Positions 3,827 to 63,803 of a stretch of DNA of 64,000 nucleotides are shown piece after piece. The position numbers were made by a program, and so were the translations under genes. Where the stretch lies: assembly GCA_026770705.1 (NCBI GenBank), contig JANJGN010000071.1, positions 1,736,001 to 1,800,000 of the forward strand, in the 5' to 3' direction. The DNA is from Isurus oxyrinchus (taxonomy: Eukaryota). Position 1 is the first letter of the stretch, and each line of letters opens with the position of its first letter. Under the pieces are notes generated by a model. It did no database searches. It was not told the DNA's origin and saw only the letters and a list, made by a program, of their open reading frames with translations.

Positions 3827-3872
<46 letters not shown>

Positions 3873-16401: not shown

Positions 16402-16447
16402 ATGGGAGAGGTCGGTCTGATATTGATCTTCATCAGCTTGCTGCAAG
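16402..16447 (+). CDS. Gene B signal-peptide exon (MGEVGLILIFISLLQ-G)
   Basis: Acceptor catttag at 16387, hydrophobic core, SLLQG|gt ending shared with the other leaders; phase 1. Confidence 0.8.
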
Positions 16448-17200: not shown

Positions 17201-17267
17201 CTGCCTCTCTCCATTGAAGTAATATTCTGCTTTTTGATGTCCTGTCTCTTCCCTTGTTGCCTTTCAG

Positions 17268-23258: not shown

Positions 23259-23351
23259 ATGGGAAGCTCCCAGATGAAATGGCGACTTGTCTTGTTCACT
23301 CTGACTTTGCTGCTCTCCCTGCAGCTGAGTCACTTCTTCTCCTTGTCAAGG
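23259..23351 (+). CDS. Candidate signal-peptide/anchor exon MGSSQMKWRLVLFTLTLLLSLQLSHFFSLSR (phase 0 donor)
   Basis: Good Kozak gagATGG, upstream in-frame stop at 23184, hydrophobic core, strong donor AGG|gtaagc. Confidence 0.45.
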
Positions 23352-23549
23352 GTAAGCTAAGAGATGTCCCTCTGGGTGAGGTATTTCTTGCACATGACTC
23401 TACATCTACCACCCAGATAGACTGGTCACTTCCGCAGTTTGATATTATTATGTTCGTGCCTTTAATATTGTCGCCCTCTATGAATTTAACATCATTTCCT
23501 TCTGTCATTTCCCCTGAAATTCTCATTCTTGTTTTCAATCCCTCCTCAG

Positions 23550-25190: not shown

Positions 25191-25247
25191 GTTGACACTG
25201 CTTTAGGTTCTTCGACGATTGAGAAATCTGTGGATTCCCCGGACACG
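25191..25247 (+). CDS. Candidate small phase 0-0 exon (VDTALGSSTIEKSVDSPDT)
   Basis: Long polypyrimidine tract, ttttgcag|GTT...ACG|gtaggt, 57 nt, frame open. Confidence 0.4.
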
Positions 25248-27447: not shown

Positions 27448-27696
27448 GGTAAACAGAACGTGCTGATTACTGAGCCCCGGAACACAACCAGAGACACAAC
27501 TAGTGAGGGGGAGACCCCAGCTCCCCGGGGTGTCTCTGAATGTGCAGTGGGAGGCGATGCTGGACATGGGAACCCCGACAATCCCAACGACCTTCTCTAC
27601 ACCAATCCCCAAGTCTTCAGGGTGCCCAGTGGTGATGGGTCTGTCCACAGGGAAGAGCAGACGGAATACGCACAGATCAGATTCAAGAGAAACTGA
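27448..27696 (+). CDS. Paralogous terminal cytoplasmic exon: ITIM degenerate (LLYTNP), ITSM retained (TEYAQI)
   Basis: Clear paralog of 8193-8441 including the upstream intron; 3'UTR homology resumes at ~28400; frame open. Confidence 0.75.
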   Translation, partial: GKQNVLITEPRNTTRDTTSEGETPAPRGVSECAVGGDAGHGNPDNPNDLLYTNPQVFRVPSGDGSVHREEQTEYAQIRFKRN

Positions 27697-28849
27697 GCGT
27701 GAAAAAGGCAGAGGTGGTCAGGAGGTTTGTGGATGGTGGCAGGGATGAAGATTCTTGGGAACATGAGACAACCCACTGGGGGAGAGGGGGAGAGAGGGAG
27801 GAAGGGACTGAATGGGTCTGTGGTTGGTGTGGTTTGGAATGAAATGTTTCCCCAGTGACGACTTGATGCTGAGTCATTGGGGACAGAGATTCAGTNNNNN
27901 NNNNNNNNNNNNNNNNNNNNNNNNNNNNNNNNNNNNNNNNNNNNNNNNNNNNNNNNNNNNNNNNNNNNNNNNNNNNNNNNNNNNNNNNNNNNNNNNNNNN
28001 NNNNNNNNNNNNNNNNNNNNNNNNNNNNNNNNNNNNNNNNNNNNNNNNNNNNNNNNNNNNNNNNNNNNNNNNNNNATTAACTGGCTTTGTGAAATCAGCT
28101 TTTTGTCACCTGTCCCTAATACCTCATTATGTGTCTCTGAGATGGATTTATATGTAGGTAACAATCCCCTGAAGAGATTTGGGACAGTTTGTTACATTAA
28201 GTGTGCCATATAAATGCAAGTTGTTGCAGGAAAGTTGATCTGCCTCGATTCAGAATGGTAATTCGGAGGGTCCATCGACAGGGCGTGTGTGCAACAGCCT
28301 CGCAATAAATGCATTGCACGGCAACAACTAAGCATGTCCTTTGATGCTGATGCATCCCAGTACTGCTGTGTGGACACATCACAACCGAGGGACTGCCTGA
28401 CTGCGTGCAGCCAACATGGCCGAATAGTAATTAGCAGAAATGTGATGTCACTGAACTTTGTTGACATTTCAGAAAGTGCTTTCTGAATTCTGCAACTTGT
28501 TTATTCTGTGATAGATTACAAGAAGCCTTTGCATTTTCTATAATATTACATTTATTGTCACAAGGGATTGAAATGCCCAGACACCACCACCTGGAAGTTC
28601 GCCTCCAAGCCACACATCATCCTGATTTTGAAATATATCGCCATTCCTTCACTGCCACTAGGGTCAAAATCTTGGACTTCCTTCTCTGACAGCATTGTGG
28701 GTGTACCTACACCACATGGAGTGCAGAGGGTCAGGAAGGCAGCTCACCACCACCTTCTCAAGGTAATTAAGGATGGGCCATAAATGCTGGCCTAGCCAGT
28801 GATGCCCACTTCCCATGGAAGAATGAATATATAAAATATAAAGTTGGAA

Positions 28850-31490
28850 CAAATGAATGAAGTTATAGCACAAATAGAGATTAATGGGTACGATAAGATG
28901 GACACTGCAGAGAGTTGGTTGCAAAGTGACCAAGGTTGGAAATTGAAAATTGAAGGATATTTGGAATCTTTGAAAGGATAGGAAAAATGAAAAGGAGGTG
29001 GGGTAGCTCTGTTAATAAAAGATGAGACCTGTAAAGTAGTGAGAAATGATTTTGGCTCAGATGTCAAGATGCACAGTCAGTTTGGGTGAACATAAGGAAT
29101 TGCAAGGGAAAGAAATCACTGGTGGGTTGGTTTATACTCCCCCCTGAATGTAGTTACACTGCAGGGGTAGATTATAAATCAATACATGAGGAGGTTTATG
29201 AGAAAGGCACCACATTAATCATGGGAGTTTTCAATCGTCATATGGATTAGCCAAATCAGATTAGCAAATTTAGCTTTCAGCGAGGTTATACAGATTGTAT
29301 TCAGGACAGTATTTTAGAACAATCCAACATGGAACCAACCAGGGAAGAGGCTGTTTTAGTCCTGGCAATGTTTAATGAGACAAGACTAATTAACATCTCA
29401 TTGTAAAGGACCCTCAAGGGAAGAGTAATCATACGGTGTTGAAATTTAATATTCAGTTTAGAAACTTGGTTCTTAAGCTAGTGTCATAAACTTAACTAAA
29501 GGCAATTACAAGGGTTAAAAGTAGAGTCGGCCCAAGTAGAGTGGGACAGCAGGTTAAAGTGGGGGGGGGGGTGTGTAGATGCGCAGCAACAGGCATCTAA
29601 AGAGATGTTTCATAAATTCCAATGAAGATATTTTCCAGTAAGAAAGAAAGAATCTATAAGAAGGATGGAGCATCGGCTGCTAACTCAGGAAGCTAAGGAC
29701 GGTATCCAATTGTGAGATAAAGCCGGCAATGTTGGGATGCTTAGTGATAGGCTGGAGATTGGGAATATTTGAGAAACCAGAAAAGTGAGGGGAGAAATAT
29801 AAGGAGGCAGAAATGATGATATGAGAGTAAACTAGCAAGAACCATAAACAATGACAGTGAGATGTTGTACATTAAAATAAGAGAGAAGCTCCAGTAATAA
29901 TGGGACACATAGAAAATCAGACTGGGGAATTAATAATGGGAAACAGGAAATGACAGAGACTTTCAACAAGAATTTTGTGTCTGTCTTCACAGTAAAAATC
30001 TCTAAAACCATCCCAATAGCAGGAGAAAGTCACGGTGCAACAAGGAGGGAGGAACATAAAACAATCACTATCACCAGAGAAAAAGTATTAAGAAAACTAA
30101 TGAGACAAATGCTGACAAGTCCCATGGAGCAGACGGCCTGAATGTGAGGGTCTGAAAGGAAATGGCTGCAGAGACGGTGGATGCATTGGATGTAATCTTC
30201 CAGAATTCCTTAGATTATGGGAAGGTCCCAGCGGATTGGATAAACATAAATGAAACACCTCTGTTCAATAAAGGGAGGAGGCAGAAAGCAAGAAACCACA
30301 GGTCAGTTAGTCTAATATCTGTCATTGGGAAAATACCAGAATTCATTATGAAGGAGGGAGCAGCAGGACATTTAGAAAACCATAATTCAATCAGACAGAG
30401 TCAACATGGGTTTGTGAAAGGGATATCATGTTTGAAAAAATTATTAGATTTACTTGAGGATGTAACAAGTGGATTGGATAAAGGGGAACCTGTAGATGTG
30501 GTGTATTAGGGACTATGACACAGCCAAGGGTAAAGGCTGAGTTGTTCAAATCCCAGAGGGAAAATTGAAACAACTGTCATAACCCAATTTTGCTGTTTGT
30601 AATTTCGAGATGAAGACTTTGAATTCAGTAGGAATAAGACCACCGATGATTGTGGGTTTTTTATATAAAACTAAATAAACCACTTATTAATTTAACAACA
30701 AATTTAACACATACACATTGGCTACAAATAACTACTATAAAAACTTTTTAACAAATCCCCCAATTAATCAACCTCACGTAAATCTCTACTAAGGCAACAA
30801 TGAACCATTGACATAATATAGACACCAGGCAAAGCACATTTGACATTACGAATTCCGAATGAGGTTCCTTTGCAAGTTGGTTGGAGGCTACAGGCTGGTT
30901 AGGTCTGAAATGCTCCTGCCTCACACACACAAACTCCTTCCTTTATATAGCTAGCTTTCCCTTTGAATGTAAATTTTCCATTGTATCACTCGGTCTTCTG
31001 AACTCCAGCTCTTCGAACAATAAAACCCCCTTTCATAGCACCAATTTCATTAGTAAGTTCAAGAAAAAACACATCTTTTGGATCCGTCTAACTAGGTGCA
31101 AGATTTTACCCCCAGTCTGGAATGGTTTATTCAACAATTGCAAATGAACACTTTACTGTTCTCCTCACAATTCACCCAATTAACATCTCAAAACTACTAA
31201 ACATCAAAGCAGACAAACCCACTGGCTTTATTCCAATTAAGACACACCCAGACACACACCTATACATGGACCACCACTAGAATTCTATTTTAAATAATAA
31301 TTTCCAAGCACATTTTACACACAAATATCTCTTCATGACATTGGATTTCCAAAAGGCATTCGATAAGGAGCCACATCAAAGGATACTGCACAGGGTGAAA
31401 TTGGTTGGTGTTGGAGGGGATATATTAATATGGATAGAGGACTGGCTAACTGACAGGAAACAGAGAGCCAGGATAAATGGGTAAATGGAT
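28850..31490 (+). mobile_element. Degenerate CR1 LINE (endonuclease plus RT), interrupted at ~30510-31340
   Basis: GGGVALLI, IFQNSLDYGKVPADW, SQHGFVKG, GEPVDVVY|LDFQKAFDK. Confidence 0.85.
30510..31340. mobile_element. Probable solo LTR inserted in the CR1 RT
   Basis: CR1 frame splits at DVVY|LDFQK; insert ends ...cttcatgaca; non-coding. Confidence 0.55.
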
Positions 31491-32129
31491 AAATGAAAGA
31501 GAGAAGGAAGGTAAAGCTGTCTGTGTGTAAAACTGTCAAATATTCTGAGTTATCCTGATTGTCTCTGATCTGCTGCAGAGTTTAAAGTTCTCAGAACATT
31601 AGCACTTTGCAGCTCAGAGAGAGACCATTGACTCACTGCCTGAAAGGGCGGTGGAAGCAGATTCAACAGGAACTTTCAGAAGGGGAACTGGATAAATACT
31701 TGAAGGGGACATTTTGCAGGGCTGTGGAGGAGAGAGTAGAGCTGAGCGTGGGAATAATTGGGCAGATCTTTCAAAGCCTCAACTATTCACAATCTACATT
31801 AGTGACTTGGATGAAGGGACTGACTGTACTGTCGGCAGATTTTCTGACTGTATGGTGAAGATAGGTAGGAAATATATAAGCTGTGCAGGAAAGCAAGTTG
31901 TGAGGAGGACACAAAGAGGCTGCAGAGGGAGATAAATAGTTTCAGTGAGTGGATAAAAAAATGAGTGGTTGGCATAGAAGGAATGAAAATGTCAGGGTGT
32001 CCAGCTGATCCTACTTGTTCTGTTCTTATATTCTTATACAGACACAGGGTTTACTGACAGTGCACAGCAAAGTGCGGTTCACTCACTTTGTTCCAACTTC
32101 CTCATTTTGTCTCACAGTGACACATCAGC

Positions 32130-32241
32130 TCTTTCTAATTAAATACACAGAGGGAGCAGCACAGGAAGAGGTCATTCAGCCCAAGCAGAGCGTGTGGGCA
32201 GTTCCTCCCCAGGCGAGCAGTCGGACAGGTCCTGGGTAAGT
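32130..32241 (+). promoter_or_regulatory. Putative promoter/non-coding first exon (AT-rich ttctaattaaata, ETS-like acaggaag, donor ctgg|gtaagt at 32236); copies have donors at ~34000, 35762, 48734, 50964 and 61326
   Basis: Consensus donor conserved ~450 nt upstream of each of the six leader exons. Confidence 0.55.
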
Positions 32242-32685
32242 AACGGAACGATTGGAATTCACTTCCACCACCAACACTGTCCTTTGTTGATGTTGTGACT
32301 TTATAAAGACAGATTCCAATTATTGATGCCTTTGAAAGATTTCTACTGATTATTGAGATCTGGGTGTGAGGCTCAATTCTGTTGTACAGAACATCTTTCT
32401 AGCTCAGGGGATGAGGGAAGTGGAGTGACATGAGCTTTTGGATGCTCTGAGGTGGTGAAAGGTGCTATACAAATGCAAATCCTTCATTGTTTTTCTTCCT
32501 TAAAGCCTTGTAACTCTCTGCAGAGCACCTATCATCCCACCGTGAATCAAATTAGTCTGTGAAGACATTGTCTAAAAGGAGTTCTGATCTTTCGAGAGCT
32601 GTCGGACAAGAGGTAAGGTCTCATTAACTCCTTTCTCTTTCAGAGTTTGAGAGTGAGAAGTGAATGGAATATCTGGCAGTGGACA

Positions 32686-32725
32686 ATGATCGGGAAATCT
32701 TACTTCATCCTGTCACTTCTCCAAG
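32686..32725 (+). CDS. Leader exon L1 (MIGKSYFILSLLQ-G)
   Basis: Acceptor ctctttcag at 32643; CAAG|gtaat; phase 1. Confidence 0.8.
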
Positions 32726-34444
32726 GTAATATCATCGTCAGCTTGGACAGATTTATGGTAAAGGGTCTTTGTAAAGATCAATCTTATTGATCTCTGATTG
32801 GGAACTAATTCAGCAGTGAGCCAGTGTACAAACTCATACCAAGTCCCATTCACCCATCACCCCTGTGCTCACTGATATACACTGACTCCCTGTCTGACAG
32901 CAGAATTGGAGAAGAATAGAGATCTCAGAGCGTTGTAGGAGCTGGAGACGGTTACACAATTAGGCAGGATTGTAGCAGCTAGAGCAGAATCTTAAACTTC
33001 AGGTGATGTCGGCTGTTGGTCAGTGATAGATGGGGAGTGATGGGTTGAGCAGAAAATCAGGGAAAGAACCTGGGGGATGAAATCTATCCAGGTACTAGGA
33101 CTCTGATAGCAAAAACCTGAAATTTGTGTCTTTTGCTGATTTTAACCAGAATTTCCCATGAAGACAACACAGCAGCTCCTAGAATAGACAGGCTGTTCAG
33201 TGTCACACTTCCTGTCCATTCTCACCATGCTAGATACTTCAATAAGGGAGCAAGATAACTGATAGAGAGAAGAAAGGTAAAGCTGTCTGTGTGTAAAACT
33301 GTCAAATATTCTGAGTTATCATGAGTGTCTCTGATCTGCTGCAGAGTTTAAATTTCACAGAATCTGGGCACTTTGCAGCTCAGAGAGAGACCATTGACTC
33401 ACTGCCTGAAAGAGCGGTGGAAGCAGATTCAACACGAACTTTCAGAAGGGGAACTGGATAAATACTTGAAGGGGACATTTTGCAGGGCTTTGGAGGAGAG
33501 AGTAGAGCTGAGCGTGGGACTAATTAGACAGATATTTCAAAGCCTCAACTATTCACAATCTACATTAGTGACTTGGATGAAGGGACTGACTGTACTGTAG
33601 GCAGATTTTCTGACTGTATGGTGAAGATAGGTAGGAAATATATAAGCTGTGCTGGAAAGCTGGTTGTGAGGAGGACACAAAGAGGCTGCAGAGGAAGATA
33701 AATAGTTTCAGTGAGTGGATAAAAAAATGAGTGGTTGGCATAGAAGGAATGAAAATATCAGGGTGTCCAGCTGATCCTACTTGTTCTGTTCTTATATTCT
33801 TATACAGACACAGGGTTTACTGACAGTGCACAGCAAAGTGCGGTTCACTCACTTTGTTCCAACTTCCTCTTTTAAACACACAGACACATCAACCCTTTCT
33901 AATTAAATACACAGAGGGAGCAGCACAGGAAGAGGTCATTCAGCCCAAGCAGAGCGTGTGGGCACTTCCTCCCCAGGCGAGCAGTCGGACAGGTCCTGGG
34001 TAAGTAACGGAACGATTGGAATTCACTTCCACGACCAACACCGTCCTTTGTTGATGTTGACTTTATAAAGACAGATTCCAATGATTGATGCCTTTGAAAG
34101 ATTTCTACTGTTTATTGAGATCTGGTGTGAGGCTCAAGTCTGTTGTACAGAACATCTTTCTAGCTCAAGGGATGAGGGAAGTGGAGTGACGAGATTTTGG
34201 ATGCCCTGAGGTGGTGAAAGGTGCTATACAAATGCAAATCCTTCATTGTTTTTCTTCCTTAAAGCCTTGTAACTCTCTGCAGAGCACCTATCATCCCACC
34301 GTGAATCAAATTAGTCAGTGAAGACATTGTCTAAAAGGAGTTCTGATCTTGCAAGAGCTGTTGGACAAGAGGTGAGGACTCATTAAATTCATTCTCTTTC
34401 AGAGTTTGAGAGTGAGAAGTGAATGGAATATCTGGGAGTAGACA

Positions 34445-34484
34445 ATGATCGGGAAATCTTACTTCATCTTGTCACTTCTCCAAG
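34445..34484 (+). CDS. Leader exon L2 (MIGKSYFILSLLQ-G)
   Basis: As L1. Confidence 0.8.
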
Positions 34485-36211
34485 GTAATATCATCGTCAG
34501 CCTGGACAGATTTATGGTAAAGGGTCTTTGTAAAGATCATTCTTATTGAGCTGTGATTGGGAACTAATTCAGCAGTGAGCCAGTGTACAAACTCATACCA
34601 AGTCCCATTCACCCATCACCCCTGTGCTCACTGATATACACTGACTCCCTGTCTGACAGCAGAATTGGACAAGAATAGAGATCTCAGAGGGTTGTAGGGG
34701 CTGGAGACGGTTACACAATTAGGCAGGATTGTAGCAGCTAGAGCAGAATCTTAAACTTCAGGTGATGTCGGCTGTTGGTCAGTGATAGATGGGGAGTGAT
34801 GGGTTGAGCAGAAAAACAGGGAAAAAAACAGGGGGATGACAGCTATCCTGATGCTAGGACACGGATAACAATGCGCTGTAATTTTGTGTCTATTGCTGAT
34901 TTTAGTCAGAATTTCCCATGAAGACAACACAGCAGCTCCTAGAATAGACAGGTTGTTCAGTGTCACACTTCCTGTCCATTCTCACCATGCTAGATACTTC
35001 AATAAGGGAGCAAGATAACTGAAAGAGAGAAGGAAGGCAAAGCTGTCTGTGTGTAAAACTGTCAAATATTCTGAGTTATCATGAGTGTCTCTGATCTGCT
35101 GCAGAGTTTAAATTTCACAGAATCTGAGCACTTTGCAGCTCAGAGAGAGACCATTGACTCACTGCCTGAAAGGGCGGTGGAAGCAGATTCAACAGGAACT
35201 TTCAGAAGGGGAACTGGATAAATACTTGAAGGTGACATTTTGCAGGGCTTTGGAGGAGAGAGCAGAGCTGAGCGTGGGAATAATTAGACAGATATTTCAA
35301 AGCATCAACTATTCACAATCTACATTAGTGACTTGGATGAAGGGACTGACTGTACTGTAGACAGATTTTCTGACTGTATGGTGAAGATAGGTAGGAAATA
35401 TATAAGCTGTGCAGGAAAGCAAGTTGTGAGGAGGACACAAAGAGGCTGCAGAGGCAGATAAGTAGTTTCAGTGAGTGGATAAAAAAATGAGTGGCTGGCA
35501 TGTAAGGAATGAAAATGTCAGGGTGTCCAGCTGATCCTATTTGTTCTGTTCTTATATTCTTATACAGACACAGGGTTTACTGACAGTGCACAGCAAAGTG
35601 CTGTTCTCTCACTTTGTACCAACTTCCTCATTTTGTCTCACAGAGACACATCAACCCTTTCTAATTAAATACACAGAGGGAGCAGCACAGGAAGAGGTCA
35701 TTCAGCCCAAGCAGAGCGTGTGGGCAGTTCCTCCCCAGGCGAGCAGTTGGACAGGTCCTGGGTAAGTAACGGAACGATTGGAATTCACTTCCACCACCAA
35801 CACCGTCCTTTGTTGATGTTGTGACTTAATAAAGACAGATTCCAATGATTGATGCCTTTGAAAGATTTCTACTGATTATTGAGATCTGGGTGTGAGGGTC
35901 AAGTCTGTTGTACAGAACATCTTTCTAGCTCAAGGGATGAGGGAAGTGGAGTGACATGAGATTTTGGATGCTCTGAGGTGGTGAAAGGTGCTATACAAAT
36001 GCAAATCCTTCATTGTTTTTCTTCCTTAAAGCCTTGTAACTCTCTGCAGAGCACCTATCATCCCACCGTGAATCAAATTAGTCAGTGAATACATTGTCTA
36101 AAAGGAGTTCTGATCTTTCGAGAGCTGTCGGACAAGAGGTGAGGTCTCATTAACTCCTTTCTCTTTCAGAGTTTGACAGTGAGAAGTGAATGGAATATCT
36201 GGCAGTGGACA

Positions 36212-36251
36212 ATGATCGGGAAATCTTACTTCCTCCTGTCACTTCTCCAAG
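36212..36251 (+). CDS. Leader exon L3 of gene C (MIGKSYFLLSLLQ-G)
   Basis: As L1; the leader nearest V exon 39311. Confidence 0.85.
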
Positions 36252-37418
36252 GTAATATCATCGTCAGCTTGGACAGATTTATGGTAAAGGGTCTTTGTAA
36301 AGATCATTCTTATTGATCTCTGATTGGGAACCGATTCAGCAGTGAGCCAGTGTACAAACTCATACCAAGTCCCATTCACCCATCACCCCTGTGCTCACTG
36401 ATATACACTGACTCCCTGTCTGACAGCAGAATTGGAGAAGAATAGAGATCTCAGAGCGTTGTAGGAGCTGGAGACGGTTACACAATTAGGCAGGATTGTA
36501 GCAGCTAGAGCAGAATCTTAAACTTCAGGTGATGTCGGCTGTTGGTCAGTGATAGATGGGGAGTGATGGGTTGAGCAGAAAATCAGGGAAAGAACCTGGG
36601 GGATGAAATCTATCCAGGTGCTAGGATTCTGATAGCAATATCCTGAAATTTGTGTCTTTTGCTGATTTTGGTCAGAATTTCCCATGAAGACAACACAGCA
36701 GCTCCTAGAATAGACAGGCTGTTCAGTGTCACACTTCCTGTCCATTCACACCATGCCAGAAACTTTGATAAGGGAGCAAGATAACTGAAAGAGAGAAGGG
36801 AGGCAAAGCTGTCTGTGTATTCTGAGTTATCATGATTGTCTCTGATCTGCTGCAGAGTATAAATTTCACAGAATCTGAGCACTTTGCAGCTCAGAGAGAG
36901 ACCATTGACTCACTGCCTGAAAGGGCGGTGGAAGCAGATTCAACAGGAACTTTCAGAAGGGGAACTGGATAAATACTTGAAGGGAAATTTGCAGGGATGT
37001 GTGAAAGGTGCTGGAGAGGAATTGGGAAAGAGCCAGCACATGCACGATGGGTCAAATTAACTCCTCCTGTGTTGTATCATTCAACAATCAGAGAATTTTA
37101 GATCCTTATCAGCAAATCTTCAGAATCCTGCTGAATCATGGATATTTCAGAAGGACAGTTAACAAGAGGTTTCTGGTATCAGCGTTTCATATGGGACCCA
37201 GTTCAGTTTGAACAAATAAACAACGTCATCTTTGAAAGTCATGAACCCACCACAGTGGCACCTCCGACACATGCAGAGCTCAGGCTAGAGGCTCTTTGTT
37301 AGTGTGTTTCACAGTCTCTGCTGGAGTAGGGTCAGTGCTGAGCTTGGGGACAAGTCAGTCTACAATGCTGCATCGGAATCAACAATACAACAATATGGGG
37401 TTTGGATCAGAAATAATC

Positions 37419-39310: not shown

Positions 39311-39679
39311 TTGGACTGTCACAAGAGTGGAAAGGTGACACTCCACGAGAGGTGTCAGCGCAGCAATGCTCGTGTGTACAGATTCCATGTCATTACAGTT
39401 ATCCAGCAAAATTTGAAAACCAACCGCGAGGTGCACTCTGGTTTAATAATGAGAAACAGATTCCCTGGGCTCCCATTGCCTTTCACTCCAAGGATCACAG
39501 TCATGAGTTACCACGGTTCCACCATCGGACCCGGCTGTCTGGAGACCTGAAAGATGGCGACTGTTCCCTGATTATAAACAACATCAGACGGGAAGATGCA
39601 GGACCTTATTTTTTCAGAATAGAATTTGACAATGGTCCGAGCCATAACTATTACCCTGTAACCCAGCTTCACGTTTCTG
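39311..39679 (+). CDS. Gene C Siglec V-set exon with the essential F-strand Arg
   Basis: ccccag|TT...CTG|gtaagt. EW...SCVQIPC...W...RTRLSGDLKDGDCSLII...EDAGPYFFRIE; Siglec-type Cys pattern. Confidence 0.93.
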
Positions 39680-40078: not shown

Positions 40079-40375
40079 ATTTCACAGATAAACCCACAAT
40101 ATTCCCTGCTGAAATTATTGCAGGAAAGCATGTGGATGTAAGCTGCACCTTCAACACAACGTGCAATGGAACAGCAGCACCTGTCTTAACCTGGGACACT
40201 CCCACTGACGTACCTGGATCTGTCTCAAACACTGTAACTCAGCATGGTGTCACTCTGACCTATACTTCTGTTCTGACCCTGACCCCGTCACTCAAACACC
40301 ACGGACACACTCTCAGCTGCAGAGTGAGATATCCATCTGTTTCATCGGAGCAGACCCTCATACTAACTGTGCAAG
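40079..40375 (+). CDS. Gene C C2 domain 2 exon
   Basis: KPTIF...SCTFNTTC...P.LTW...SVLTLTPSLKHHGHTLSCRVRYP...LTVQ; carries the extra Cys for the V-C2 interdomain bond; phase 1-1. Confidence 0.93.
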
Positions 40376-41899: not shown

Positions 41900-42950
41900 A
41901 CCTCTGACAGTGCAGCACTCTCTCAGAACTGACACTCCAACAGTTCAGCACCACCTCTCCACTGACCCTCTGACAATGTAGCGCTCCCTCAGTACTGACA
42001 CTCCAAAAGTTCAGCACCATCTCTCTACTGACCCTCTGACAATGCATCACTCCCTCAGTACTGACCACCTGACAGTGCAGTGCTCCCGCAGCACTGACCC
42101 ACCGACAATGCTGCAATCCCTAGGTACTGACCCTCCGACAGTGCAGCACTCCCTCAGTACTGAGAGTCAGTACTGCGGGAGTGCTGCACTGTCGGACGGT
42201 CAGTACTGAGGGAGTGCTGCACTGTCAGAGGGCAGTACTGAGAGAGTGCCACACTGTCAGAGTGTCAGTACTGAGGGAGTGCTGCACTGTCAGAGGGTCA
42301 GTACTGAGGGAGTGCTGCACTTCGGAGGGTGAATACTGAGGGAGTGCTGCACTGTCAGAGGGTCATTACTGAGGGATTGCTGCAATGTCAGAGGGTCATT
42401 ACTGAGGGAGTGCTGCACTGTCGGAGGGTCAGTATTGAGGGAGTGCTGCACTGTCGGAGGGTGAATACTGAGGGAGTGCTGCACTGTCGGAGGGTGAATA
42501 CTGAGGGAGTGCTGCACTGTCATCGGGTCAGTACTGAGGGAGTGCTGAACTTTCAGAGGGTCAGTACTGAGGGGGTGCTGCACTGTTGGAGGGTGAGTAC
42601 TGAGGTGGTGCTGCACCATTGGGGGTTCAGTACTGACGGAGTGCTGCACTGTCACCGGGTCAGTACTGAGGGAGTGCTGCACTGTCAGAGGGTCAGTACT
42701 GAGGGCTGCTGCACTGTCAGAGGGTCAGTACTGAGGGAGTGCTACACTGTCAGATGGTGAGTACTGAGGGAGTGCTGCACTATCAGAGGGTCAGTACTGA
42801 TGGAGTGCTGCACTGTCAGAGGGTCAGTACTGATGGAGTGCTGTACTGTCGGAGGGTCAGTACTGAGGGAGTGCTGCACCGTTGGGGGGTCAGTATTGAG
42901 GGAGTGCTGCACCGTTGGGGGGTCATTGCCGAGTGAGTGCTGCTCTGTCA
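41900..42950. repeat. 33-bp minisatellite, two arrays in opposite orientation (switch at ~42160)
   Basis: cagcactccctcagtactg units up to 42162, then cagtactgagggagtgctg units. Confidence 0.92.
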
Positions 42951-43569
42951 GAATTATCACTTGTATCAAAATGTTTTTAACTTTACTGTTGTTCCCACTT
43001 CAGCTGCAACTGCTCCACATCCCCATGTGTTAACTGGAGCATGTCAGCCTGGAGTTACGTGGAATTGCAGAGCAGAATCTGCTCTCACACATTGAAGCTG
43101 GCAATCGCTAAGTGTCCCTCAGTGATGATGTTTTCTGATGGAATGAAACTTGGCAAAGCCGTGGGTAGTGACAAGGAGAGATTGGGCATGAGAGGGGCAG
43201 GATCAGTGTGAGGTGGGCAGACACATGGCTGATGCAGTTCAGCGCAGTGTCGTGTGAAGTGACGCACTTTGTCAGGATGAATACAGACAGATATTGGACA
43301 GTAATGATTTGGACAGGTGTAGGTGAGCAGAGACCTGGGCGTCTCTCTGCACTCATTCTGAAAGATTAAAGGACAACTTGTTGAGGTGATGAAGAAAGAA
43401 AATGTCTTCCTTGTGTTAACAGACTGAGGAACTGAGTTAAAAGCAAAGAGATCATGCGGGAACTTTATAAATCACTGGTTAGAACTCAGCTGGAATGTTG
43501 TTCAGAACGCTGGGCCTCCACACTTCAGGAAAGATGTAAGAGCTTCAGACAGGGTGTCCAAGAGGACAA

Positions 43570-44359: not shown

Positions 44360-44647
44360 ATGCTCCAGATAAGCCAGTTATTGTGCTCCTGAAGGATTTA
44401 CAGGAGGGGACTCCTGCACATATCATCTGTAAATGCCTCTACACCTGCCCTGATAACCACCCCAATCTAACCTGGAGTGAATTGCTGACTTCCTCGGTCA
44501 GCACCATCACAGAGAACGGTGGTGATGTTTCCGCTCTACTGACCTTTAACCCTTCGTTCAAGCATCATGGACGAACTCTCTGCTGTACGTGTGACTACTC
44601 TCAAACCAGCCATCGAGTGGTCAACTCAGTTACTCTGAGTGTAAAGT
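44360..44647 (+). CDS. Gene C C2 domain 3 exon (domain-2-like, Cys-rich)
   Basis: ttccag|AT...AAGT|gtaagt. APDKPVI...ICKCLYTCP...PNLTW...LTFNPSFKHHGRTLCCTC...LSVK. Confidence 0.9.
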
Positions 44648-45155
44648 GTAAGTATTGGTTAGAACATCCTGCTTGTGATGGAGGGGGAGTCAGTCTCCTA
44701 CTAAATCAGGCATTGGAGAAGGTGCAAGTGGGATTGACAAGGATGATTCCAGAACTGAGAGGTTATAACTATCAGGAAAGACTGAACAAGCTGGGCTTCT
44801 TTTCTCTAGAAAAGAGAAGGCTGAGGGGGTGACCTGATCGAGGTCCTTAAAATAGTGAAAGGGTTTCGATAGGGTAGATGTGGAGAAGATGTCTCCACTT
44901 GTCGGAGTGAAGAAGAGTTAGGGGCCATCAATATAAGATCATCACTAATAAAATGGTGCACACTGCTAACAATGTGCGTTCATGGTGGAGGGAGTGAATG
45001 TTGAAGATGGTGGGTGGGATGCCAATCAATCGGGCTGCGTTGTCCTGGATGGTGTCGAGCTTCTTGAGTGTTGTTGGAGCCGCACTCATCCCGGCAACTG
45101 GAGAGAATTCCATCACACTCAGTGTTTAATGTGTTGATAATTTTGTATTTGAAAG

Positions 45156-45413
45156 ATTCTCCTCACAACACGTCTGTCAGGCTGACACTGGAAAAAGGAA
45201 AGGTGATTTCTCTAAGTTGTTCCAGTGACGAGAATCCTGCGGTCCACAATTTCACCTGGTTTAAGATATCCCAAGGAAAGGTGACGAATCTGGCGCTCGC
45301 TGGTCAAACTATTACAGTTCCTTCTGGATTCGATGAGGAAATCTCCTACTACTGTGAAGCAACAAGTATCCTGGGCAGTTCCCAGTCTCTGCCCATTAGA
45401 ATTCCCACTGAAT
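45156..45413 (+). CDS. Gene C C2 domain 4 exon
   Basis: SPHNTSV...LSCSSDENPAVHNFTWFK...YYCEATSILGS...; phase 1-1. Confidence 0.88.
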
Positions 45414-45918
45414 GTGAGTAATTTCAATCCTGACTTTTAAACAATTCCACATCTTGTCCAAACTCCGAGGTGAACCAAATCTCCCCTTGGGTGTTGCTGA
45501 AAACATGCTGTCGAAGGTTTCAGTCTCGTCAGGACAGAGTCACGAGAAAACCCAATCTCAAAGGGAACAGCCATTTCTGATGCGGGGGAAGAGGGCGTGC
45601 TGATTGGCTGGCAAGTCGACATTTCTCCACAGTTTGTTCACAATTCTCAGTGATGGTCACCATGAAACTACCAGATTGTTGTAAAAACCCTTCAGTACTG
45701 TCCCTCCAACAGTGCAGATCTCCCTCGCTACTGACTCTCTAATAGTGTAGCACCCTCTCAGTACTGACCTTCTGACATTGCAGGACTCCCTCAGGACTGA
45801 ACTGAAGTGTCTGCCTGAATTAAGTTCTTTGTGGTGAAGGAACCTACATTGATATCACACCTTTCACATTCTCAGGGTCTCTCAAAGTGTTTCACAGTCA
45901 ATGTAAGTAACTGATCAG

Positions 45919-46200
45919 ACACACCACAGAATCTCTCAATTAATTCTCTTGATATAATTAACGCTTCATCGATCAATATAATTGAGGGGAATTCTGCAGT
46001 GATAATCTGCTCTGTCGAGAGCTTCCCAGCTTCTAACCTGACGTGGCGACATCTTAATGTCCCAATGAACAGAACAAGTTCCAACAATGAGCTGTGGTTG
46101 GTGATTCCTCACGTTACATCCAGGGACACGGGACACTATCAGTGTGCGGCAGAGAAGGAACATGGAGCAGTGGAGGGATTTATAACCATCTCTGTGGAAC
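45919..46200 (+). CDS. Gene C membrane-proximal C2 exon, near-identical to the gene A repeats
   Basis: 282 nt, frame open, donor gtgagt; acceptor atypical (gtaagtaactgatcag, poor pyrimidine tract). Confidence 0.8.
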
Positions 46201-47464: not shown

Positions 47465-47561
47465 GGCGAGATTCCAATGAATGGAAAGCAGGATTGCTTG
47501 GAGCTGGAATCTGTTTGAGTGTTGGACTGAGTGGATTCTTCATTTTCAAGTGTGTGAGAAA
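47465..47561 (+). CDS. Gene C transmembrane exon (RDSNEWKAGLLGAGICLSVGLSGFFIFKCVRK)
   Basis: ttttacag|GG...AA|gtaagt; same 97-nt length and phases as the gene A TM exon. Confidence 0.88.
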
Positions 47562-49176
47562 GTAAGTGTGAAGGTTTAATTGGTTGTTTTCGAAAATGTT
47601 TTCTTCAAACTTCTCTCCTTATAGAAAGAACTTTCATTTCTATAGCACCTTTTACAACCCAAAACGCTTCACAGCCCCTGAAGAATTTTGATGTTCACCT
47701 ACTGTTTAACATCTCATCCAACACTCAATGTTTCACAACTCAGACCTGTAACAGGCAGTGTTGACCCGGACCATAAGATACCTTGTGACCTACTGAGGAT
47801 GTGAAAGGTGCTATATAAATGAAAACCTTTCTTTTGTTAGTGAATGCAATCTCTTTCCTTTTTCCATGTTTCATTCACTCTCTCTTATCTCCACTAATGT
47901 TGGCCTTCTCATTCTCTCTCTCATTCACTCTCTCTCCAATCTCCACTAATGCTCTCCTTCTCATTCTCTCTCTCATTCACTCTCTCTCTCCAGTCTCCAC
48001 TAATGCTTTCCTTCTCATTCTCTCTCTCATTCACTCTCTCTCTTATCTTCAGTCATGCCCTCCTTCTCATTCTCGCTCTCATTCACTCTCTCTCCTATCT
48101 CCACTAATGCTCTCCTTCTCATTCTCTCTCTCGTCCTCTTACACAATGTTCAGTATCTCACATTTTTAAGGAGCGCTGAGCAACATCTGCTCCTTCAGAA
48201 GATCCACCTCAACACCTGGAGTGAGCAGTGAATTGAAACTCGCTCACCAACTGCTCAGCTTTACACAGGAATCACGTCACAGAGTCAGGACACAAAGGGT
48301 TAACAGTTTGTTTACAACACAACACTAAGGCCCTACGTTTCAGTGAAAGGGTTTTCACAATTGTTCCCCAATTCCTGATTTTACTCACAGAGACACATCA
48401 ACCCTTTCTAATTAAATACACAGATGGATCAGCACAGGAAGAGGTCATTCAGCCCAAGCAGAGCGTGTGGGCAGTACCTCCCCTGGTCAATGACTTTCCA
48501 CTTTTGAGCAGAAATATCATCACAAGTCCAGAACGCAAAGGGTTAACAGCTTCAAAAAACTCTAAACATGAGCTGCATCCTCACAAAGTGACCACTTCCA
48601 CATTTTGACTCACAGTGACACATCAACCCTTTCTAATTAAATACACAGAGGGAGCAACACAGGAAGAGGTCATTCAGCCCAAGCAGAGCGTGTGGGCAGT
48701 ACCTCCCCAGGCGAGCAGTCGGACAGGTCCTGGGTAAGTAACGGAACGATTGGAATTCACTTCCACGACCAACACCGTCCTTTGTTGATGTTGTGACTTT
48801 ATAAAGACAGATTCCAATGATTGATGCCTTTGAAAGATTTCTACTGATTATTGAGATCTGGGTGTGAGGCTCAAGTCTGTTGTACAGAACAACTTTCTAG
48901 CTCAAGGGATGATGGAATTGCAGAGACATGAGCTTGGGGACGTCCTGAGGTGGTGAAAGGCGATATAGAAATGCAAGTCCTTCATTGTTTTACTTTCTTA
49001 AAGCCTTGTAACTCTCTGCAGAGCACATATCATCCCACAGAGAATGAAATTAGTCTGTGAAGACATTGTCTAAAAGCAGTTCTGATCTCTCGAGAGCTGT
49101 CAGACAAGAGGTGAGGTCTCGTTAACTCCTTTCTCTTTCACAGCTTGAGAACCAATGAAATACCTGGGAGTGGACA

Positions 49177-49216
49177 ATGATCAGGAAATCTTACTTCCTC
49201 CTGTCACTTCTCCAAG
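49177..49216 (+). CDS. Leader exon L4 (MIRKSYFLLSLLQ-G); no V exon of its own
   Basis: Paralog of L1-L3; its intron breaks off at ~50390 into a minisatellite and a new promoter. Confidence 0.7.
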
Positions 49217-51413
49217 GTAATATCATTGTCAGCTCGGACAGATTTATGGCTAATCATCTTTGTAAAACATAATTCTTATTGAGCTGTGATTGGGAACAGA
49301 TTCAGCAGTGAGCCAGTGTACAAACTCACACCAAGTCCCATTCACCCATCACCCCTGTGCTCACTGATATACACTGACTCCCTGTCTGACAGCAGAATTG
49401 GAGGATAGCAGAGGACTTTGAGGTTTGCATGGTTGGAGGAGAAAGTGATTGGAGAAGAGGAATGGAGGGAATGGAAATTGAGGATGAGAATCTTAAACTC
49501 GAGGCTCTGCTGGACTGGGAGCCAGTGCAGGTCAGCGAGTGGCGGAAGGCGTGAGGTGTTGAATTGAGAAACAGTGATAAATACTGGGGATGAAGTCTAT
49601 CCTGATGCTTGGACTCCGATAGCAAAGGAATGAAATTTGTGTCTTTTGCTGATTTTAGTCAGAATTTCCCATGAAGACAACACAGCAGCTCCTAGAATAG
49701 ACAGGCTGTTCAGTGACACACTTCCTGTCCATTCTCACCTTGCTAGATACTTCAATAAGGGAGCAAGATAACTGAAAGAGAGAAGGAAGGTAAAGCTGTC
49801 CGTGTGTAAATGGGTCAATATTCAGTTTGCATATTTGTCTTTCTCTCGACACATGCAGAGCTCAGGCTAGAGGCGCTTTGTTAGTGTGTTTCACAGTGTC
49901 TGCTGGAGTAGGGTCAGTGCTGAGCTTGGGGACAAGTCAGTCTACAATGCTGCATCGGAATCAACAATACAACAATATGGGGTTTGGATCAGAAATAATC
50001 CCTTAGACAATGAGGATCCAAAGAGATTCCTTAGACAATGAGGATCCAAAGAGATTCCTTAGACAATGAGGATCCAAAGAGATTCCTTAAACAATGAGGA
50101 TCCAAAAAGATTCCTTAGACAATGAGGATCCAAAGAGATTCCTCAGACAATGTGGATCCAAAGAGATTCCTTAGACAATGAGGATCCAAAGAGATTCCTT
50201 AGACAATGAGGATCCAAAGAGATTCCTTAGACAATGAACATACAAAGTGCACCAATCAGATTGAATCAGATTAGCTAATCAGCTGTGTTGAAGAGCAGAC
50301 AGGAATGTTAGGCTAATTAGTGATTCATGACGGTGACAATGGGGGGAGTTCTGACGGCTCCTAATCCATTGTCCTGTCTTGTAAATCAGCACCTTAATAC
50401 TGACCCTCCAACAGTGCAGCACTCCCTCAGTACTGATCCTCCAACATTGCAGCACTCCCTGATTAATGTCCCTCTGACAGTGCAGCACTCCCTCAGTACT
50501 GACCCTCAAACAGTGGAGATCTCCCTCAGTACTGACCTTACAATAGTGCAACACTCGCTCAGTAATGACCATCCGACAGTGCAGCACTTGCTCAGTACTG
50601 ACACTGGGGAGTTTCAGTCTACTCTGTGGGGCAGACGTCCCCTGAATCGGGTCTTGAATCCCACAACATTCTGACCCCCTGAATTTGGCTGTGAAACCCA
50701 CTGACCCACAGGAGAAACTCCTGGTCAATGACTGTCCACATGTGAGCAGAAATATCACCACAGGGTCAGGACACAAAGTTCACCAACATCTCAAAACATG
50801 AGCTGCTCTGTCACTTTGATCCAACTTCCTCATTTTGTCTCACAGAGACACATCAACCCTTTCTCACTAAATACACAGAGGGGGCAGCACAGGAAGAGGT
50901 CATTCAGCCCAAGCAGAGCGTGTGGGCAGTTCCTCCCCAGGCGAGCAGTCGGACAGGTCCTGGGTAAGTAACGGAACGATTGGAATTCACTTCCACGACC
51001 AACACCGTCCTTTGTTGATGTTGTGACTTTATAAAGACAGATTCCAATGATTGATGCCTTTGAAAGATTTCTACTGATTATTGAGATCTGGGTGTGAGGC
51101 TCAAGTCTGTTGTACAGAACATCTTTCTAGCTCAAGGGATGAGGGAAGTGCAGGGACATGAGCTTTGGGACATCCTGAGGTGGTGAAAGGTGCGATAGAA
51201 ATGCAAATCCTTCATTGATTTTCTTTCTTAAAGCCTTGTAACTCTCTGCAGAGCACCTATCATCCCACAGAGAATCAAACTATTCTGTGAAGACATTGTC
51301 TAAAAGCAGTTCTGATCTCTCGAGAGCTGTCGGACAAGAGGTGAGGTCTCATTAACTCCTTTCTCTTTCACAGCTTGAGAGTGAGAAGTGGATGGAATAT
51401 CTGGGAGTGGACG

Positions 51414-51453
51414 ATGATCGGGAAATCTTACTTCCTCCTGTCACTTCTCCAAG
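51414..51453 (+). CDS. Leader exon L5 of gene D (MIGKSYFLLSLLQ-G)
   Basis: Paralog of L1-L3 with intact splice sites. Confidence 0.75.
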
Positions 51454-52144: not shown

Positions 52145-52175
52145 TATTACCCTGTAACCCGGCTTCACGTTTCTG
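52145..52175 (+). pseudogene. Remnant of the deleted V exon of gene D (last ~31 nt plus donor)
   Basis: The pre-V intron (matching 39050-39300) joins directly to tattaccctgtaacccggcttcacgtttctg|gtaag. Confidence 0.88.
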
Positions 52176-52644
52176 GTAAGTGCTGTGTTATAATTACAAA
52201 ACAATTCACATTCAACACTCAATGGGAAATAACACAAACTTTGACATTTACATATTAACACAAAACACAGCTTAATATAACACACTGTCTGATTCTCAAT
52301 AACCTGGTGATCGCTTCCAGTTCAGTCCTAAAGCAACCTCTAATACTCACTTTAATATCAATAACGAAAAGCATTAACTGTATTATCAGGTTACCACACC
52401 CATCAATCTCTCCTGTCCTGTTTAAAAGTCTGACGTATCGATAAAAGAAAGATGTGCATTTCTGCAGCGCAATTTACCACCTCAGGTGGATCCAAATCCA
52501 TTCACAGCCAATGAAATTATTCCTGAATTGTGGTCACAGATGTTAAACACAGCAGGCAGTTTGTGCACAGCAAGATCCAACAAACCACAAGGTGATAAAT
52601 CACCCAGATCACTGAGGAAATGAGAAGCCAGTGAACTCAAACCT

Positions 52645-52785
52645 CTGGTCTGATGAAGAGTCATACGGACTCGAAACGTTAACTCTGTCTTCCTCTCCAC
52701 TGATACTGTCAGACCTGCTGAGTCTTTCCAGCAATTTTTGTTTTTGTTTCAGATTTCCAGCATCCGCAGTATTCTGCTTTTAACT
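52645..52785. mobile_element. Short interspersed element, possibly a Penelope-like end; second copy at ~16590-16680
   Basis: tctgatgaagagtcatacggactcgaaacgttaactctg...cagacctgctgag...ccagca; absent from the paralogous intron of gene C. Confidence 0.55.
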
Positions 52786-53033
52786 CCAATCTCTGGTCTG
52801 AGCCTCTTCTCTCATCCAGTGTTCTCAATTCACATGTCTCGGAGTGAACGTGTATTAAGCTGAGAGACAGAAACACTACTGCCAAAGAGCAAGAAAATCT
52901 TTCCTGATCATTGTAACCTCTCAGTTCTGATATCATCCTTGTAAAAGTGCTTTCTCTTGTGGGACTGTGATTTCTATTTGAACTGATGCTTCACGTTATA
53001 TTTCTCTAAAAGGATCCATTCTCTGTGTGTTAG

Positions 53034-53330
53034 ATTTCACAGATAAACCCACGATATTCCCTGCTGAAATTATTGCAGGAAAGCGTGTGGATGTAAGCTG
53101 CACCTTCAACACAACGTGCAATGGAACAGCAGCACCTGTCTTAACCTGGGACACTCCCACTGACGTACCTGGATCCGTCTCAAACACTGTAACTCAGCAT
53201 GGTGTCACTCTGACCTATACTTCTGTTCTGACCCTGATCCCATCACTCAAACACCACGGACACACTCTCAGCTGCAGAGTGAGATATCCATCTGTTTCAT
53301 CGGAGCGGACCCTCATACTAACTGTGCAAT
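53034..53330 (+). CDS. Gene D C2 domain 2 exon (intact, near-identical to 40079-40375)
   Basis: tgttag|AT...CAAT|gtaagt; frame open; no further Ig or TM exon before the next promoter. Confidence 0.8.
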
Positions 53331-60955: not shown

Positions 60956-61776
60956 ACACCGAGTGCCGGTCTGGTTTGGCAGTCTGAATTTTGCCAAATG
61001 AATCTCGAACAGACGACCTTCTCACTCAGACAGCGAGAGAGGGTTTGAAACCCAATGACCCACAGGAGAAATTCCTGGTCAATGACTTTCCACTTTTGAG
61101 CAGAAATATCATCACAAGTCCAGAACGCAAAGGGTTAACAGCTTCAAAAAACTCTAAACATGAGCTGCATCCTCACAAAGTGACCACTTCCACATTTTGA
61201 CTCACAGTGACACATCAACCCTTTCTAATTAAATACACAGAGGGAGCAACACAGGAAGAGGTCATTCAGCCCAAGCAGAGCGTGTGGGCAGTACCTCCCC
61301 AGGCGAGCAGTCGGACAGGTCCTGGGTAAGTAACGGAACGATTGGAATTCACTTCCACGACCAACACCGTCCTTTGTTGATGTTGTGACTTTATAAAGAC
61401 AGATTCCAATGATTGATGCCTTTGAAAGATTTCTACTGATTATTGAGATCTGGGTGTGAGGCTCAAGTCTGTTGTACAGAACAACTTTCTAGCTCAAGGG
61501 ATGATGGAATTGCAGAGACATGAGCTTGGGGACGTCCTGAGGTGGTGAAAGGTGATATAGAAATGCAAGTCCTTCAATGTTTTTCTTTCTTAAAGCCTTG
61601 TAACTCTCTGCAGAGCACCTATCATCCCACAGAGAATCAAATTAGATCCGTGAAGACATTGTCTAAAAGCAGTTCTGATCTCTCGAGAGCTGTAGGACAA
61701 GAGGTGAGGTCTCATTAATTCCTTTCTCTTTCAGAACTTCAGAGTTAGAAGCTGAGGAAATATCTGGGAGTGGACA

Positions 61777-61816
61777 ATGATTGGGAAATCTTTCTTCCTC
61801 CTGTCACTTCTCCAAG
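61777..61816 (+). CDS. Leader exon L6 of gene E (MIGKSFFLLSLLQ-G)
   Basis: Paralog of L1-L5 with intact splice sites. Confidence 0.85.
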
Positions 61817-63434: not shown

Positions 63435-63803
63435 TTGGACTGTCACAAGAGTGGAAAGGTGACACTCCCCGAGAGGTGACAGCGCAGGAAGGTTCGTGTG
63501 GACAGATTCCATGTCATTACAGTTATCCAGCACATTTGGAAAGCCAACCGCGAGGTGGAGTCTGGTTTAATAATGAGGAACAGATCCCCTGGGCTCCCAT
63601 AGCCTTTCACTCCAAGGATCACAGTCACGAGTTACCACGGTTCCGCCATCGGACCCGGCTGTCTGGAGACCTGAAAGATGGCGACTGTTCCCTGATTATA
63701 AACAACATCAGACGGGAAGATGCAGGACCTTATTTTTTCAGAATAGAATTTGACAATGGTCCGAGCCATAACTATTATCCTGTAACCCAGCTTCACATTT
63801 CTG
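63435..63803 (+). CDS. Gene E Siglec V-set exon with the essential Arg; gene continues beyond the window
   Basis: ccccag|TT...CTG|gtaagt; SCGQIPC...GDCSLII...GPYFFRIE. Confidence 0.93.

Follow-up and report, generated by a model that had tools for sequence, protein, structure and literature searches.

The 64,000-nucleotide stretch analyzed here, which we refer to as the window, holds an array of tandem repeat units that sits in a Siglec gene cluster of the shark Isurus oxyrinchus. Its features are as follows.

28844..31481 (+): LINE remnant 5' of the array, interrupted at 30.5-31.3 kb
31488..33253 (+): unit 1 of the array
31776..31995 (+): segment B, a continuation of the upstream LINE that is present in each unit
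32151..32235 (+): exon X, copy 1, 85 nt, AG/GT, with a second AG 33 nt upstream
32644..32725 (+): leader exon 1, ATG at 32686
33254..35013 (+): unit 2, the most diverged of the three
33915..33999 (+): exon X, copy 2, upstream -33 AG lost
34403..34484 (+): leader exon 2, ATG at 34445
35014..36779 (+): unit 3 of the array
35677..35761 (+): exon X, copy 3
36170..36251 (+): leader exon 3, ATG at 36212, closest to the V exon
36780..37001 (+): partial fourth copy, 222 bp; segment A, the native intron 3' of the leader
39311..39679 (+): Siglec V-set exon of gene C (PF07686, PF24518)
40079..40375 (+): C2 exon of CD33-like type, 5' half of gene C
44360..46200 (+): three C2 exons (44360-44647, 45156-45413, 45919-46200)
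47465..47561 (+): gene C, exon for the transmembrane segment
48424..48483 (+): truncated tail exon X of gene C, joined to the upstream flank of cassette 4
48649..49216 (+): cassette 4; X 48649-48733, leader 49144-49216, acceptor moved 2 nt
50879..51453 (+): cassette 5; X 50879-50963, leader 51374-51453, acceptor moved 2 nt
52145..53330 (+): remains of gene D; 3' 31 nt of a V exon and C2 exon 53034-53330
61241..61816 (+): cassette 6; X 61241-61325, leader 61735-61816, without upstream ATG
63435..63803 (+): Siglec V-set exon of gene E

Both V exons scored above the cut-offs of PF07686 and PF24518, the N-terminal Siglec-type V-set Ig domains, and the 18 best of 28 PDB matches were Siglecs. The V exon of gene C matched Siglec-5/7/8, CD33, sialoadhesin and MAG. 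A Y-F-F-R motif, aligning with Siglec-5 and Siglec-7, is present in both V exons, and we take its arginine to be the essential sialic-acid-binding arginine of Siglecs. The C2-set domains and the one transmembrane segment that characterize Siglecs are present as well. The reading frame of gene C runs without a stop through 543 codons, beginning in leader 3 and reaching the transmembrane exon, and on inspection by eye no charged residue was seen in the hydrophobic core of its transmembrane segment. It is a chimera, as its 3' exons match white-shark models which start with the other leader and V exon of the window; in these models the C2 exons 44360-44647 and 45156-45413 are part of a MAG-like gene, whose leader and V exon match at 16402 and 17268. 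Within the window gene C is without cytoplasmic tyrosine motifs, its tail being cut at 48483. A search of the 64-kb window for its tyrosine-motif tail exons gave no convincing match, the best E being 0.6 for the first and 0.02, on the other tail type, for the second; nor did the window yield anything convincing for a third transmembrane type or for the 3' end that V exon 17268 would need.

The triplicated 1.76-kb unit described in the initial annotation is real: three tandem units of 1766, 1760 and 1766 bp are present, along with the 222-bp partial copy and three cassettes downstream, and the pair of exon X and leader is found in six copies in the window. Pairwise identities of the units are 95.45, 96.72 and 95.40%, with 58-81 substitutions per pair and only five indel events in all; 14 of the 41 sites specific to unit 2 are common to cassette 4 or 6. 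Between leaders 1, 2 and 3 the difference amounts to no more than one residue of the signal peptide, and leader exon 1 carries an out-of-frame upstream ATG at 32664. All six leaders were said to keep ATG, frame and splice sites. This holds for the ATG, for the 40-nt phase-1 coding part, which is free of stops, and for the GT donor, but in cassettes 4 and 5 the homologous leader acceptor has been lost (AG to AC) and an acceptor is available only with a 2-nt shift, at an AG 2 nt downstream. The count of six cassettes for two intact V exons is likewise correct for the window, but the window stops at 64000, which sets a bound on the 6:2 ratio. Cassette 5 is not a V-less orphan by design; a V exon was there and was lost through a deletion of about 348 bp, which left 31 nt of the exon (52145-52175), followed by a C2 exon. 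Between cassettes 4 and 6 there is full identity for 479 bp, with no difference before 48961, after which about 12% of columns differ; this is a homogenised 5' tract between neighbouring genes, for which an assembly cause is possible.

Exon X has its own splice acceptor (AG...GT) and is open from phase 2 to 0 in all six full copies. Of the 153 shark Siglec models that were retrieved, 25, from 11 species, have X as their first cytoplasmic-tail exon; the match is in frame and directly 3' of the transmembrane segment. What had been read as a non-coding exon with a promoter is an AG...GT exon homologous to a coding tail exon. The TATA-like word of the putative promoter lies within the 3' splice site of X, and the supposed extra partial promoter near 48390 is the start of the tail exon behind transmembrane exon 47465-47561. 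Among the 62 occurrences of X in models, whose context was labelled automatically and corrected by eye in three cases, X is internal in most models, while it begins the CDS in six of eight white-shark models of one cluster. The distance from the X donor to the leader is constant (403-410 nt), and X is the nearest strong donor. Upstream of X, the array has only some 60-80 bp in common with cassettes 4-6, and LINE makes up the remaining flank.

The same leader, exon X, X-leader and X-X-leader joins, and a transmembrane exon followed by X, are found in basking shark LOC144671591 (XP_078389683 and isoforms) and XP_078390089/90 and in white shark XP_041037216 and XP_041037222-25. These RefSeq genes, which are automatic predictions, retain tyrosine-motif tail exons or several V exons, whereas gene C does not, and the existing records carry the arrangement only as automatic predictions without description. 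At one basking-shark locus X-X-leader occurs in 12 of 15 listed isoforms and leader-X-leader in 3 of 15; at a second locus two isoforms read transmembrane exon-X-X-leader.

The origin of the array is suggested by its left border. The LINE remnant upstream of it, presumably CR1-like, is collinear with a LINE copy at 54039-55825, in which the matches to RVT_1 stay under the Pfam cut-off. With this copy as a ruler, segment B extends the upstream LINE after a gap of 49 nt and segment A is wedged between, so that the A/B boundary near 31775 would be the duplication junction and would lie in LINE remains. We favour, with reasonable but not strong confidence, a tandem amplification of the 1.76-kb block with its X and leader, in which LINE remains most likely served as sites of unequal recombination and the copies persisted as a near-neutral side effect of turnover in the cluster; such a by-product is most likely a better account than a multi-promoter dosage switch. 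The single-copy ancestor would have been arranged as LINE-B-X-leader-intron; joining of intron segment A to segment B would have made the repeat, which may have grown to at least four units, after which the first unit would have lost its X and leader. The fourth unit was probably deleted. As the X acceptors were kept, transcripts arriving from upstream would splice through X and not skip it. When splicing paths were enumerated, the ATG of an upstream leader became a 19- or 43-codon upstream ORF in 15 of the 16 multi-leader paths, which implies that extra copies would not simply add protein.

Turnover is evident elsewhere in the same window, as five tandem C2 exons with a further fragment (0.4-5.5 kb), one V exon deleted and one interrupted, the chimeric gene C and the 479-bp identical tract. 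In mammals, Siglec clusters are known to have undergone gene conversion and fusion (PMC4042635, PMC6288428). The SIGLEC14/5 fusion and the SIGLEC11/16 conversion are alike to our case in having tandem Siglecs, homogenised 5' regions and chimeras in which the 5' part of one gene drives the body of another; unlike them, the shark block does not reach the V exon, is present in a stack of three and has a tail-exon copy at its start. A very recent neutral duplication had been offered earlier as the alternative to promoter dosage. Neutral duplication is the better supported of the two, but 'very recent' does not fit, as the units differ by 3.3-4.6% against 2.0-3.8% for whole-gene paralogues in the window. 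Absolute dating with an epaulette-shark rate gave 1.2-3.3 x 10^7 generations, which is implausibly old for a long-lived shark, and only relative dating was used.

Intact leaders are expected without selection, since the neutral chance that units 1 and 2 retain all essential sites is 0.52-0.57. In the three units variable columns make up 4/133 of exon and splice sites and 104/1626 elsewhere (Fisher p=0.13); this and the other p-values of the selection tests are uncorrected for multiple testing. Private changes in the four cassettes without a V exon of their own are rarer in exonic and splice positions (4/532) than elsewhere (42/2172), a borderline deficit (p=0.06), while for the V-proximal cassettes the corresponding test gave p=0.75. 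Over all six copies X and the 5' half of the intron are less variable (16/267) than the 3' half (39/221; p=8e-5), which reflects either conversion or constraint; leader CDS against flanks gave p=0.22, and X against the 5' half of the intron p=1.0. Besides the borderline deficit and the uneven variability, three observations count against a neutral by-product: stacked X copies occur in the basking-shark models, so the architecture recurs or is old and selection could explain it; gene C is without visible decay; and an ETS/PU.1-like word lies upstream of four of the six full X copies.

If each unit were a compact promoter at X, with each leader splicing directly to the V exon, copy number would set how much receptor is made or what share of the cells expresses it. 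We consider this quite unlikely, though several observations agree with it. Every leader needs an upstream exon, for which X has the nearest strong donor; 11 of the 27 enumerated paths have one leader and give a normal protein; and the borderline deficit in orphan cassettes would fit, as would the recurrence of stacked X in the basking-shark models. The start of the CDS inside X in the white-shark cluster also fits, but says nothing of the start of transcription. A word that we take to be ETS/PU.1-like precedes X1, X2, X3 and X5 (four of the six full copies), but it falls within the polypyrimidine stretch of the -33 acceptor, and the window has 14 instances of it. A promoter at X is a candidate only; the upstream sequence common to the cassettes is short, no CpG island was found at any of the six X copies (observed/expected 0.26-0.43), gene C is without terminal exons in the window, and X has splice acceptors and is spliced through in the basking-shark models. 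A Sigma-70 promoter and terminator scan of 31400-33300, which is not applicable to a vertebrate, remained at background level, and an Rfam scan of the whole window returned 0 matches. In protocadherin and UGT1A arrays tandem first exons are used, and the variable exon alters the mature protein. The shark array resembles them in having tandem 5' cassettes that could splice to common downstream exons, but leaders 1-3 contribute no different part of the mature protein and the exon upstream of them has an acceptor. The KIR/Ly49 switches, as set out in PMC4222648, consist of competing sense and antisense promoters, with one switch per gene. Like Ly49 Pro1 and the KIR proximal bidirectional promoter, the shark array belongs to a cluster of immune receptors in which a gene may have two or more upstream elements; the Ly49 and KIR elements are distinct from each other and non-coding and do not rest on copies of ATG-bearing exons, whereas the array consists of three units at 95-97% identity, each of which has a leader with an ATG and an exon with an acceptor.

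It is also unlikely, in our judgement, that X is a dual-use exon through which transcripts of one Siglec gene continue into the gene that follows, the stacked X-leader units inserting upstream ORFs that damp translation or trigger decay. Models of basking, white and sevengill shark have X ahead of a leader or of a V exon, and each of the three frames is represented; the upstream ORFs in nearly all multi-leader paths would serve such damping. The 5' X copy of sevengill shark differs from the tail exon of that species by a minimum of 1 mismatch and from the X of the window by 3, and the window's X in turn needs 4 mismatches to match the sevengill tail; this suggests that X copies may be under concerted evolution within species, although the comparison covers one protein and 25 codons. 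On the other side, the XP_ records are predicted models, and automatic prediction can join tandem genes into spurious chains; a single locus supplies most of the isoforms, and selection on chaining is conjecture. A misjoining or mis-polishing of repeats, which could have produced the triplet, the chimeric gene C or the identity of cassettes 4 and 6, appears very improbable. Three N gaps lie in the window (12336-12559, 13467-13611 and 27896-28075), long 33-bp satellite arrays stand at several junctions, and cassettes 4 and 6 pass from identity to a difference of about 12%. Yet 28076-64000 is free of N gaps, stacked X copies appear in the models of another species, and the substitutions between unit pairs far exceed the diversity of 0.2% that PMC10587355 reports for epaulette shark. 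The low transition/transversion ratio of the units (0.6-0.8) was considered as a sign of sequencing error and rejected, since most other paralogue pairs of the window are similar.

Taken as turnover debris in a birth-and-death cluster, which it most likely is, the array leaves one residue of interest, namely a single exon placed both as a tail exon and as a 5' linker exon. It is a tentative and rather doubtful possibility that in shark Siglec clusters X serves as tail exon and as 5' linker before every leader, has been under concerted evolution since a deep shark split, and forms a splice-through array whose stacked units tune output via start-site choice or upstream ORFs. If neutral, the locus is a clear record of sub-gene turnover in a Siglec cluster, with LINE-bounded stutter, deletion, conversion and chimeras, and it also cautions that genes of this kind will be strung together by automatic annotation. 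Should the two roles of X be genuine and under selection, the design would be an unusual one, in which the same 85 nt are tail-coding in one place and a 5' linker in another. In that case the SNPs that tell the units apart would allow direct tests of start-site use, read-through and damping by upstream ORFs in shark Siglecs, a little-studied family of immune receptors.

Domain profile search matched the V exon at 39311-39679 to the V-set and to CD22-like first domains, of its 28 PDB hits the top 18 were Siglecs, and 110 of the 122 candidates from protein search were relatives, all named records being shark or ray and the closest by identity coming from white shark (93%) and basking shark (88%). 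From these matches we infer that the window is a Siglec cluster of a lamniform shark. The V exon at 63435-63803 differs from that at 39311-39679 in 12 amino-acid-changing and 5 silent codons, nine of the 12 lying in the first 48 codons, and the latter exon has an additional cysteine. An upstream Siglec gene carries a 282-nt C2 exon five times in tandem, each copy intact (401-5554; 7-16 differences per pair), with a 3' fragment of this exon at 5482-5554, and, at 6362-8441, a transmembrane exon, a short tail exon (~7153-7235) and a terminal exon with two tyrosine motifs; this is a second tail type, without exon X, the 85-nt exon found 5' of each leader. A search by title and start of abstract in mainly open-access literature found no description of shark Siglec cluster structure or of exon X; a passage in PMC8455134 names Siglecs in passing.

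Self-comparison of the window confirmed the tandem repeat reported by the initial annotation, as three units and a partial copy, while the names it gave to the parts proved wrong.

Array units and further cassettes (exon X plus leader) in the window
31488-33253, array unit 1 (cassette 1)
33254-35013, array unit 2 (cassette 2)
35014-36779, array unit 3 (cassette 3)
to 37001, partial copy after unit 3
48649-49216, cassette 4
50879-51453, cassette 5
61241-61816, cassette 6

The units differ pairwise at 80 of 1759, 58 of 1766 and 81 of 1759 columns. In all six X and leader pairs the leader has its ATG, 40 coding nt and GT donor. Cassettes 4 and 5 have AC in place of the homologous leader acceptor AG, and the sole nearby substitute is the next AG, 2 nt further on. 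An out-of-frame ATG lies 22 nt 5' of the main ATG in five leaders (32664, 34423, 36190, 49155 and 51392) and is absent from leader 6; in units 1-3 it opens an overlapping ORF of 29 codons, and two white-shark models begin in its frame. By eye, the alignment also shows a possible extra acceptor and donor within the X-leader intron (32524-32612), about 31 nt from the leader acceptor.

What had been taken for a promoter and a non-coding exon is exon X, which was hit when the 110 relatives were compared with the window in translation. The exon lies between AG and GT, all six full copies are open in phase 2 to 0, and the TATA-like word lies within the final 11 nt before its acceptor. In that phase 20 of the 110 proteins match; in 19 the match directly follows a transmembrane segment, and in one it is N-terminal. 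When the set was widened to 153 with cluster members and a second search, and X was scored in any frame, 47 proteins gave 62 occurrences (three context labels set by eye), all in predicted models that are non-independent, many being isoforms of a single locus. Twenty-five of these, in 11 shark species, read in the tail frame and follow a transmembrane segment; the other 37, from basking, white and sevengill shark, stand before a leader in 23 cases, before a further X in 12 and before a V exon in 2. In 6 of 7 copies the X acceptor is preceded, 33 nt 5' of it, by a second AG whose pyrimidine tract is better, and the 11 residues this AG would add are present in two basking-shark isoforms. The 5' X copy of one sevengill protein requires a minimum of one change to its own species' tail exon and three to the window's X, while four separate the latter from the sevengill tail exon, a hint of concerted evolution of X copies; the split between sevengill and lamniform sharks is deep.

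Stacking of these exons recurs in predicted models of relatives. Among the 15 listed of 20 isoforms of basking-shark LOC144671591, 12 read X-X-leader and three leader-X-leader; the upstream leader of the latter may belong to a distant gene, and they are therefore no proof of cassettes without V exon. At a second basking-shark locus some isoforms run from the transmembrane exon through X to a tyrosine tail and others through X-X-leader to V. In one white-shark cluster 6 of 8 proteins have their N-terminus within X and run on into the leader, and a further one begins with a LINE-derived segment (88% identity to window 29938-30084) that is joined to X. Exon-like pieces at 23257-23352 (matched by eye only), 25191-25247 and 27448-27697 resemble the start of basking-shark isoform P0113, the last being a paralogue of the terminal exon 8193-8441.

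For the origin of the array we used as ruler a LINE copy at 54.0-56.8 kb, which we take to be CR1-like.

Array-side LINE segments and their positions in the ruler copy
28844-30510, LINE segment, maps to 54039-55688
31341-31481, LINE segment, maps to 55685-55825
31776-31995, segment B of unit 1, maps to 55875-56070

The collinear mapping indicates that segment B of each unit continues the upstream LINE, with segment A, the native intron downstream of the leader, wedged ahead of it. The duplication junction would lie at A/B near 31775, and the array would once have had at least four units, the first of which then lost X and leader; a short shared word spans the 5' edge. Sites specific to one unit and common to cassette 4 or 6 number 14 of 41 for unit 2, 4 of 17 for unit 1 and 3 of 16 for unit 3. 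The units diverge by 3.3-4.6%, as against 2.0-3.8% around the V and C2 exons of genes C (fed by the array), D (remains behind cassette 5) and E (V exon 63435-63803), which argues that the array is no younger than these gene copies or their last homogenisation. A 33-bp satellite (41901-42952, 50392-50605, 53524-53810, 56864-59553, 60560-60957) occurs at several rearrangement junctions or close to them, and directly 5' of cassettes 5 and 6; at 41.9-43.0 kb it forms two arms of opposite orientation. At 59555-60554 lie more copies of the post-leader intron, some close and some diverged, which suggest that a further cassette was lost upstream of cassette 6.

The three gene copies have three, two and one cassettes. 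Gene C is open from leader 3 through V and four C2 exons to the transmembrane exon (543 codons). White-shark models XP_041037222-25 join leader 16402 and V 17268 to C2 exons 44360 and 45156 and continue with the transmembrane exon seen in gene C, then X and tyrosine-motif exons; in the window the 5' half of gene C sits on this body, from which gene C appears to be a chimera. The leader and V exon at 16388-17554 are those of a MAG-like Siglec (88-93% to XP_041037223/25). Near 17554 V 17268 stops short, followed by an LTR-type remnant (weak protease match); neither the 3' end of this V exon nor the tyrosine-motif exons of gene C could be located in the window. The supposed partial promoter at ~48390 turned out to be gene C's tail exon X, which starts at 48424, is truncated at 48483 and is fused there to the 5' flank of cassette 4. 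Behind cassette 5 only 31 nt of a V exon survive, and cassettes 4 and 6 are identical over 479 bp and then ~12% different. The C2 exon at 45919-46200, 93-95% identical to exons at 0.4-4.8 kb between unrelated introns and with a poor acceptor pyrimidine tract, is possibly an exon-limited conversion.

Under neutrality, units 1 and 2 would have kept every essential site with a chance of 0.52-0.57, so the intact leaders tell little about selection. Variable columns in the three units were 4 of 133 in exons and splice sites versus 104 of 1626 elsewhere (p=0.13). Against a near-neutral reading of the array count the changes private to single cassettes among the four that lack a V exon of their own (4/532 exonic or splice vs 42/2172 elsewhere, p=0.06) and the clearly lower variability of X and the 5' half of the intron than of the 3' half (p=8e-5); X (5/85) is no better conserved than the intron 5' half (11/182), and conversion or a regulatory block fits this better than protein constraint. 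In favour of a promoter at X is an ETS/PU.1-like word upstream of X1, X2, X3 and X5 (4 of its 14 window occurrences); however, this word falls in the pyrimidine tract of the upstream acceptor, no CpG island was seen at the X copies, and the upstream sequence common to the array and cassettes 4-6 spans only about 60-80 bp. Of 27 in-order splice paths enumerated from X acceptor to V exon with the proximal acceptor only, 11 carry a single leader and would give the normal protein; in 15 of the 16 multi-leader paths an upstream ORF of 19 or 43 codons would begin at the ATG of the upstream leader, and in 7 the usually out-of-frame ATG would yield an in-frame extension before the signal peptide.

In variable first-exon arrays such as those of protocadherin and UGT1A each cassette encodes a different part of the mature protein, which is not so in the shark array. 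Nor does it show the single switch per gene, with distinct non-coding upstream elements, of Ly49/KIR switches (PMC4222648), to which promoter dosage or variegation had been likened. Other reports describe the SIGLEC14/5 fusion, with Siglec-5 under the SIGLEC14 promoter (PMC4042635), rapid Siglec cluster evolution with conversion (PMC6288428), and, for epaulette shark, a rate of 7x10^-10 per generation and a diversity of 0.002 (PMC10587355). That the dual placement of X is a selected splice-through design seems unlikely to us. The array most probably works like other Siglec-cluster rearrangements, and the dual placement of tail exon X may be the part that is new.
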